Part shown: positions 58,660 to 58,990 of the stretch, in pieces
How the letters are laid out: each line of letters opens with the position of its first letter
Position numbering within the stretch: the first letter of the stretch is position 1
NCBI RefSeq assembly: GCF_058153355.1
Contig: NZ_CM177019.1
Length of the DNA: 64,000 nucleotides
Direction: 5' to 3' (one strand)
Notes under the pieces: model-generated
Database searches by the model: none
The model's input: only the letters and a program-made list of their open reading frames with translations
Told to the model about the DNA's origin: nothing
Translations under genes and position numbers: made by a program

Positions 58660-58990
58660 CCTCTCCACATGGAGAAGGTGGGGCTTATTGCCTGATGCGC
58701 TACGCTTATCAGGCCTACAAAACAAAGCACAATTTGTTGAATTTTCACGTTCTTGTAGGCCGGATAAGGCGTTTACGCCGCATCCGGCGCGGCCCCTCTC
58801 CACATGGAGAAGATGGGCTAATTGCCTGATGCGCTACGCTTATCAGGCCTACAAAAACAAAGCACAATTTGTTGAATTTGCACGTTCTTGTAGGCCGGAT
58901 AAGGCGTTTACGCCGCAACCGGCGCGGCCCCTCTCCTCACGGAGAGGGTTTGGGTGAGGGAAAAGCCTCACCCCAGCCCTCTCGGGTAAA
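58660..58990. repeat. REP/BIME cluster: ~2.5 tandem copies of a ~135-bp composite unit between mtlA and mtlD
   Basis: Unit cctctccacatggagaag…gcctgatgcgctacgcttatcaggcctac…tgtaggccggataaggcgtttacgccgca(t/a)ccggcgcggcc repeats at ~58660, ~58795 and partially at ~58929. Confidence 0.7.

Follow-up and report, generated by a model that had tools for sequence, protein, structure and literature searches.

A tandem duplication of a BIME-1-type repeat unit in the mtlA–mtlD spacer of Escherichia coli, probably arisen by exchange between short flanking direct repeats

The mtlA–mtlD spacer and its tandem array

The present work deals with the mannitol operon mtlADR in a stretch of 64,000 nucleotides (nt) of Escherichia coli DNA (contig NZ_CM177019.1 of assembly GCF_058153355.1), hereafter the window, and in particular with a tandem array of two 135-bp units in the spacer between the first two genes. 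Each unit combines two inverted repetitive extragenic palindromic (REP) sequences, of the types found in a bacterial interspersed mosaic element of class 1 (BIME-1), with one flanking hairpin, and the array probably arose by duplication through short direct repeats on either side of the element. All features lie on the plus strand unless stated otherwise. The upstream gene, mtlA (56736–58649), known from the list of open reading frames (ORFs) and carrying the same name in matching E. coli records, encodes the phosphotransferase system (PTS) mannitol transporter IICBA and ends with a TAA codon at 58647–58649. This codon is the upstream border of a transcribed intercistronic spacer of 363 bp (58650–59012), beyond which lies mtlD (59013–60161), the gene for mannitol-1-phosphate 5-dehydrogenase.

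The true start of mtlD is the ATG at 59013. The RefSeq annotation of every E. coli genome fetched has the start at the equivalent position, and the tblastn matches of MtlD open at residue 1 (MKALHFGA...) in 80 of 80 species. A Shine-Dalgarno-like GAAGG (59000–59004) is located 8 nt 5′ of this ATG and belongs to an (A/G)AAGG block conserved in an alignment of 66 sequences. The ORF track opens mtlD further upstream, at 58869, which the first-pass annotation had regarded as an artefact of reading through the repeats. This is indeed the case: the TTG at 58869 is 144 nt in frame upstream of the ATG, and the 48 extra codons are translated REP sequence. The lesson for annotation is that ORF callers over-extend mtlD into REP/BIME repeats. 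In the RefSeq annotation of K-12 MG1655 the mtlA–mtlD spacer carries no repeat feature, and a full-text literature search on REPs in the mtl operon found nothing relevant.

For 58660–58945, Tandem Repeats Finder gives a period of 135 with 2.1 copies, 94% matches, 1% indels, and a score of 514. Direct-repeat families with a spacing of 135/134 bp cover 92 nt at 96% identity and 42 nt at 98%, and a 23-nt family has members at 58660, 58795, and 58930, the third of which is just 78% identical. The array consists of two complete head-to-tail 135-bp units and the 23-nt beginning of a third, which amounts to 2.1–2.2 copies. The same first reading of the sequence had described a head-to-tail tandem of a composite unit made of two inverted REPs and a palindrome, and self-comparison of the spacer agrees with it in both respects: the 135-bp periodicity is present, and each unit contains a Z1 REP on the plus strand, a Y REP on the minus strand, and the palindrome CCTCTCCACATGGAGAAG, running from 58660 and from 58795, respectively. 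Its count of ~2.5 copies turned out to be too high, 58953–58990 being non-repeat sequence that forms part of a conserved double-hairpin element.

Unit 1 (58660–58794), as delimited by Tandem Repeats Finder, a repeat search, and alignment of the units, is composed of hairpin P, the Z1 REP, a linker L, the Y REP, and GCGCGGCC. Unit 2 (58795–58929) differs from it in six alignment columns, four of which are common to unit 2 of other strains with two or three units. The partial third start (58930–58952) is hairpin A, the first of those in the conserved element, and acts as the direct repeat on the right. Hairpin P1 (58656–58682), CCCACCUCUCC ACAU GGAGAAGGUGGG in RNA and CCACCTCTCC-ACAT-GGAGAAGGTGG in DNA, starts 7 nt past the mtlA stop and folds at −20.1 kcal/mol (z = −4.5). 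P with its left context occurs once in an E. coli genome and invariably where mtlA ends, which marks it as locus-specific and not as a generic BIME flank. The junction hairpin P2 (58792–58818) is chimeric, its upstream context GGCGCGGCC-CCTCTCC matching that of A and its downstream part ACATGGAGAAGATGGG being similar to P. It is weaker than P1, with a fold of −11.6 kcal/mol (z = −1.7).

The REPs themselves were located by a REP scan. The Z1 REP of unit 1 (GCCTGATGCGCTACGCTTATCAGGCCTAC, 58690–58718) agrees with nt 1–29 of the 30-nt REP query given in PMC11208160 and forms an RNA hairpin of −13.2 kcal/mol; that of unit 2 (58824–58852) is identical. The linker L has 36 nt in unit 1 (58719–58754) and, owing to one additional A, 37 nt in unit 2 (58853–58889). 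Both linkers contain a site on the minus strand (58730–58742 and 58865–58877) resembling that of integration host factor (IHF). This IHF-like sequence, ATTCAACAAATTG, has one mismatch to the consensus WATCAANNNNTTR, and the mismatch and the position of the site are the same in the BIME-1 between avtA and ysaA. The Y REP of unit 1 (58755–58788, minus strand; GCCGGATGCGGCGTAAACGCCTTATCCGGCCTAC on that strand) forms an RNA hairpin of −21.1 kcal/mol. In the Y REP of unit 2 (58890–58923, minus strand), a T-to-A change at 58918 that is peculiar to the window partly opens the stem and weakens the hairpin to −17.3 kcal/mol, a mismatch that is also flagged in the Rfam alignment. A second change private to the window is a G-to-T at ~58746, in the linker of unit 1. 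Four of the seven REPs detectable in the whole window fall in the mtl array.

A conserved double-hairpin element upstream of mtlD

The array is followed by a double-hairpin element (58929–58986) with the sequence CCCTCTCC-TCAC-GGAGAGGG-TTT-GGGTGAGGG-AAAAG-CCTCACCC-CAG-CCCTCTC-GGG. Its arms are A (CCCTCTCC, 58929–58936), A′ (GGAGAGGG, 58941–58948), the pair B/B′ (GGGTGAGGG-AAAAG-CCTCACCC, 58952–58973), and A2 (CCCTCTC, 58977–58983); A′ can pair with either A or A2, the two pairings being mutually exclusive. In the comparison set used throughout, 5,426 complete E. coli genomes, the element occupies one place per genome in 5,404 and is at least 99% identical in 4,830. Of the ~80 Enterobacterales species sampled, most have it right before the ribosome-binding site of mtlD, among them members of Citrobacter, Salmonella, Klebsiella, Enterobacter, Kosakonia, Cedecea, and Pluralibacter; in loci L010–L073 it stands ~100 nt 5′ of the gene, and in Pantoea a different GC-rich hairpin pair is found at this position.

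An alignment of 65 loci and the window reveals conserved stems and freely variable loops. The consensus fold is a long hairpin, GAGAGGG...CCCTCTC (A′...A2), around GGGTGAGG/CCTCACCC, with at least one compensatory change in 8 of the 17 pairs. Folded alone, the element adopts this long hairpin at −37.7 kcal/mol; the fold of the whole spacer has the alternative pair of hairpins instead. No Rfam family matches the element. What had been counted as a third copy in the first-pass annotation is a separate conserved element and not a repeat unit.

Hairpin P copies the initial 25 nt of the element (hairpin A) at 80% identity. Related GC-rich motifs are scattered through E. coli genomes (median 6 BLAST places each) as a family with the pattern CCCTCTCC(C)-loop-(G)GGAGAGGG-NN(N)-GGGGTGAGGG. 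Its members often stand as inverted pairs, CCCTCTCCC-loop-GGGAGAGGG-CC-GGGGTGAGGGC; examples are seen in the flgG–flgH spacer of E. coli MFDS1022581 (locus L091, 300–450) and in loci L037 (4660–4840) and L026 (5120–5370), and the family also occurs in the downstream part of mtl loci from Enterobacter and Pluralibacter. This palindromic family is probably 'BoxC', a name that is not adopted here. BoxC is given in the literature as 56 bp with 32 copies, without a sequence (PMC2267715). The hairpin and the GGGTGAGGG motif are common to the dispersed family, the mtl element and, through the latter, hairpin P. Unlike its dispersed relatives, the mtl copy is fixed at an orthologous position in many genera, has an inverted second half that gives rise to the long hairpin, and is single-copy in E. 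coli by BLAST, matching its own locus alone.

Spacer alleles and the origin of the duplication

The expectation that the copy number of the array differs between strains was borne out by the comparison set, in which zero, one, two, and three units as well as other architectures occur. Representative alleles were read individually, and the percentages given here are estimates from evenly spaced samples of ranked matches, in which one-unit alleles cover the two-unit query twice. A spacer of 229 bp with one unit, as in K-12 MG1655 (L009) and in locus L002, is carried by ~63% of the genomes, and a spacer of 94 bp with no unit, as in O157:H7 (L005), by ~16%. Spacers of 363/364 bp with two units were found in at least 8 genomes (363 bp in the window, 364 bp in L001) and spacers of 498 bp with three units, as in L006, in at least 10, both counts being lower bounds. 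The two- and three-unit alleles are rare. Their host strains come from humans, cattle, dogs, goats, and food, with no habitat association.

Other architectures of the spacer are also present. An allele of 161 bp (E. coli SMN013SH2, L004 451–611; ~1%) has a 68-bp deletion of P and Z1, which leaves half a BIME-1 immediately after the mtlA stop. An allele of 318 bp (E. coli BCE049, L003 451–768; ~14%) consists of Z1, a truncated L, Y, and then one 101-bp Z2-S-Y unit of the BIME-2 type, and a further allele of 419 bp (E. coli N12, L007 2707–3125; ~3%) is built in the same way with two such 101-bp units. The Z2-S-Y alleles represent a second, unrelated expansion series at the mtl locus.

With a probability of about 80%, we regard the array as a tandem segmental duplication of a BIME-1/RIB-type repeat together with its flanking hairpin P, produced by exchange between the direct repeats P and A, and with a stabilizing or attenuating role in the mRNA suggested by analogy with other REP/BIME sequences. 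In one-unit alleles the BIME-1 is bracketed by two direct repeats of ~25 nt that are 80% alike, P and hairpin A. Their starts are exactly 135 bp apart, which is the period of the array, and their 5′ ends have a perfect CCCTCTCC in common. Either unequal recombination or slippage during replication at CCCTCTCC would gain or lose exactly one 135-bp unit, and exchange of one unit at this microhomology would account for the series of zero, one, two, and three units. Since the context upstream of P2 is A-like and the sequence downstream of it P-like, the exchange point probably lies within the common CCCTCTCC. In the zero-unit allele, the left flank TCCAATCC(T)A runs straight into an A-type hairpin, a product of the reciprocal type. 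The breakpoints point to direct-repeat exchange, and not to REP-driven amplification, as the mechanism.

The duplication has a single origin. Units 1 and 2 differ by four changes (a G-to-A, a 1-nt deletion, a T-to-A, and an extra A) that are all common to the window, L001, and L006, and in L006 a single base separates unit 2 from unit 3. Because of these shared changes and this one-base difference, we conclude that the duplication occurred once and that the triplication was derived from it; the three-unit allele would have come from the two-unit allele by re-duplication of unit 2. The 94-bp allele is most simply understood as a secondary deletion, because P and the REPs are present at the mtl site of E. 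albertii and of a divergent representative of the genus Escherichia (L011). In Salmonella and Citrobacter, a single REP without P occupies this site. By the coding sequence flanking the array, the window falls within E. coli and is closest to the three-unit strain (8 differences in 600 nt), and the two-unit strain L001 has K-12-like flanks. The multi-unit alleles are placed on different flanking haplotypes, so that flanks or spacer must have recombined to some extent among lineages.

Several points weigh against this explanation. The occurrence of multi-unit alleles on different flanks additionally requires that the spacer was transferred horizontally or that its flanks recombined. The putative crossover microhomology amounts to just 8–9 nt, and RecA-independent slippage and unequal recombination would leave indistinguishable products. 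The four fixed differences between units 1 and 2 could mean that the duplication is old or that two divergent alleles exchanged sequence. The rarity of the multi-unit alleles (at least 8 and at least 10 of the 5,426 genomes) speaks against frequent slippage and lends selection no support. On the functional side, the explanation proceeds by analogy with other REP elements. A scan of 58400–59200 detected no promoter-like or terminator-like sites, and the strict IHF consensus has no match in the spacer, being missed by one base in both L linkers.

Amplification by a REP-associated tyrosine transposase (RAYT, TnpA-REP), through REP-adjacent cleavage and strand transfer as proposed for tandem BIME-2, is one alternative for a tandem of REP pairs. 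Models of this kind exist, the copy number of tandem BIMEs varies among strains (PMC3333891), and expansions of 101-bp Z2-S-Y units of the BIME-2 type are present at the mtl locus itself in L003 and L007. We nevertheless rejected it as distinctly unlikely for the 135-bp array, since no breakpoint falls within a REP and part of the unit is locus-specific, non-BIME sequence: the phase of the repeat is set by the P and A hairpins and its period equals the P-to-A spacing, and the REPs are of the Z1/Y type with an L linker, that is, of the BIME-1 type described as single-copy, with no Z2 in the array. An extremely improbable alternative is a repeat mis-expanded during sequencing or assembly. Short REP tandem repeats are error-prone in short-read assemblies, and the window is ~2% different from every complete genome searched; however, the two-unit form is recovered as one uninterrupted alignment in 8 independent complete genomes and the three-unit form in 10, and consistent shared differences between units 1 and 2 are not expected from collapse or expansion. 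An artefact was rejected on these grounds. It is also very improbable that the region encodes an extended MtlD from 58869, a small protein (an 89-aa ORF at 58688–58957), or a nucleoid-associated RNA like naRNA4. Such ORFs do exist mechanically, and Rfam gives naRNA4 (RF02564) matches at 58758–58794 and 58893–58949, but the ORFs run through REPs and change or vanish with the number of units, conservation of the mtlD start and of its GAAGG ribosome-binding site extends over ~80 species, and the matches score 38.6 and 33.3 bits against a gathering score of 59.5, the first covering a generic REP hairpin alone. Read-through of REPs and sub-threshold scores led us to reject both a coding and a small-RNA role. 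At a permissive E-value, Rfam found in 58000–59600 these sub-threshold matches, a spurious Tymo_tRNA-like match, and nothing else.

Two further proposals concern function. The number of units may be under selection as a tuning device, with added units strengthening an attenuator or stabilizer and resetting the ratio of MtlA to MtlD/MtlR by lineage. The discrete series of zero to three units and its transcribed position between the genes of a transporter and those of an enzyme and a repressor are in line with this, and REP/BIME sequences are documented stabilizers and attenuators (PMC2267715). We consider it unlikely, given that the two- and three-unit alleles are very rare and of apparently single origin, with no recurrent gain, and show no association with habitat. 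It is similarly doubtful that the double-hairpin element is a functional RNA switch or processing signal setting mtlD–mtlR expression, with which the P hairpins would compete or from which they would insulate, so that the number of units would tune the switch. Duplication by direct-repeat exchange remains the preferred explanation. What the array documents, with exact breakpoints, is the gain, loss, and amplification of a BIME-1 in 135-bp steps, apparently via short flanking direct repeats and not via the REPs. Its direct importance is small. The array is a rare allele, and the kind of element to which it belongs is already known.

Predicted function, IS621 targets, and relation to known elements

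The RNA of the spacer is predicted to fold at −168.7 kcal/mol (z = −9.1 against shuffled sequences), and the REP and P1 hairpins fold at −13 to −21 kcal/mol. BIMEs composed of palindromic units (PU) are known as mRNA stabilizers and transcriptional attenuators (PMC2267715). More generally, REP/BIME sequences stabilize the upstream mRNA, attenuate transcription, and are bound by IHF (in the BIME-1 linker), gyrase, and DNA polymerase I (PMC2267715, PMC3333891, PMC2817692). An influence of the array on message stability and polarity, as suggested in the first-pass annotation, is plausible from this background. Each mtl unit would add three stable hairpins to the polycistronic mRNA. These may act as barriers to 3′-to-5′ exonucleases that protect the mtlA mRNA, and as attenuators that reduce read-through into mtlD–mtlR; at the DNA level, each unit would add one IHF-type site and one exact insertion target of IS621. 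By analogy, a change in copy number should shift the ratio of MtlA to MtlD/MtlR modestly, or be neutral. Because the two- and three-unit alleles are rare and apparently of single origin, there is no sign of selection, and the change is most likely neutral or mildly modulating. In general, a natural series of zero, one, two, and three units in a simple inducible operon could be a convenient test bed for relating the number of REP hairpins to mRNA stability, polarity, and IHF occupancy.

The natural target of the insertion sequence (IS) IS621 is the 11-nt ATCAGGCCTAC with the core CT (PMC11208160). The array contains two exact copies of it, at 58708–58718 and 58842–58852, each inside a Z1 REP, so that both Z1 REPs carry a target of the defined kind (ATCAGGCCTAC or ATCGGGCCTAC, with a CT core and inside a REP). 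These two are the only intact exact copies in the 64-kb window, where 0.03 would be expected by chance, and both are unoccupied. The window has an IS621 of its own (~10808–12087), whose intact ORF (11000–11980, plus strand, 326 aa) is annotated as an IS621-family IS110-like transposase in matching genomes. It interrupts the Z1 REP of the BIME-1 between avtA and ysaA, and its flanks, ATCAGGC-CT...CT-AC, reconstitute the target ATCAGGC-CT-AC; in all 12 of the 12 matches listed, IS621 lies between avtA and ysaA. With Rfam at the gathering threshold, the whole window yields no match to a bridge-RNA family for this copy.

A synthetic junction query identified one genome of the 5,426 (NZ_CM136168.1, strain PRO_A-1422-6M-A_ESBL) with IS621 in the mtl spacer, at the orthologous Z1 REP target. 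Here the element (L090, 2501–4008) sits in a one-unit spacer with the junctions ATCAGAC-CT|IS|CT-AC and in the orientation of the operon, as predicted; it puts 1.28 kb between the mtlA promoter and mtlD–mtlR. These observations uphold the suggestion of the first-pass annotation that the array is a preferred kind of target for IS621. Z-type REPs in general carry this motif, which is not special to the mtl array. The supplements of the bridge-RNA paper make no mention of mtlA or mtlD (PMC11208160).

Elsewhere, the window as a whole is ~98% identical to the closest complete E. coli genome. The first ~1.9 kb (50000–51861) of an 8-kb stretch upstream of mtlA is unmatched in the best-matching E. coli genomes, which carry IS and RHS-type genes in the corresponding region. 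Across the window, just one Rfam match exceeds the gathering score: naRNA4 (RF02564, 63.1 bits) at 26134–26212, plus strand, which overlaps a Z2-like REP at 26179–26215.

Among known systems, the REP between malE and malF is reportedly an intercistronic stabilizer and attenuator, in work ascribed to Newbury et al. in 1987 and Espeli et al. in 2001. The mtl array similarly places REP hairpins in a polycistronic transcript, with a highly expressed gene upstream of others. The array also resembles the REP targets of IS621. Each mtl Z1 REP has an exact 11-nt target with a CT core, and both the IS621 of the window and that of NZ_CM136168.1 are inserted at this Z1 position in the same orientation. 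The mtl array supplies two adjacent natural targets for the IS621 bridge recombinase.

With regard to the established classes, BIME-1 consists of Y and Z1 with a long linker L that frequently contains an IHF site, and occurs in single copies (PMC3333891). Inverted Y and Z1 REPs define BIME-1, and any other association of PUs counts as an atypical BIME (PMC3333891, PMC1187871). Both mtl units contain inverted Z1 (GCCTGATGCGCTACGCTTATCAGGCCTAC) and Y (GCCGGATGCGGCGTAAACGCCTTATCCGGCCTAC) REPs matching the reference sequences in PMC11208160, separated by a long linker of 36 or 37 nt, in which the IHF-like TTGAA...CAA is one mismatch off the consensus and is placed as in the avtA–ysaA BIME-1, IHF binding being a prediction. 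Like the BIME-1/RIB/RIP elements in general, the mtl element is extragenic, transcribed, and present or absent between K-12 and O157:H7. It differs from them in two respects: they are described as single-copy, as the K-12 allele is, whereas the mtl element is tandem in the window (two units) and in L006 (three), and its unit includes a locus-specific hairpin foreign to BIME-1. BIME-2, in which Y and Z2 REPs are joined by a short linker S in tandem, and atypical BIMEs share with the mtl array the head-to-tail REP pairs and a copy number varying by strain. In contrast to BIME-2, the array has neither a Z2 REP nor a short S linker, and its period is set by flanking direct repeats that are not REPs; true BIME-2-type units of 101 bp are found at the mtl locus in other strains. 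With the arrangement (Z1-L-Y) × 2, the array is an atypical BIME made of two BIME-1 units, each with one flanking hairpin.

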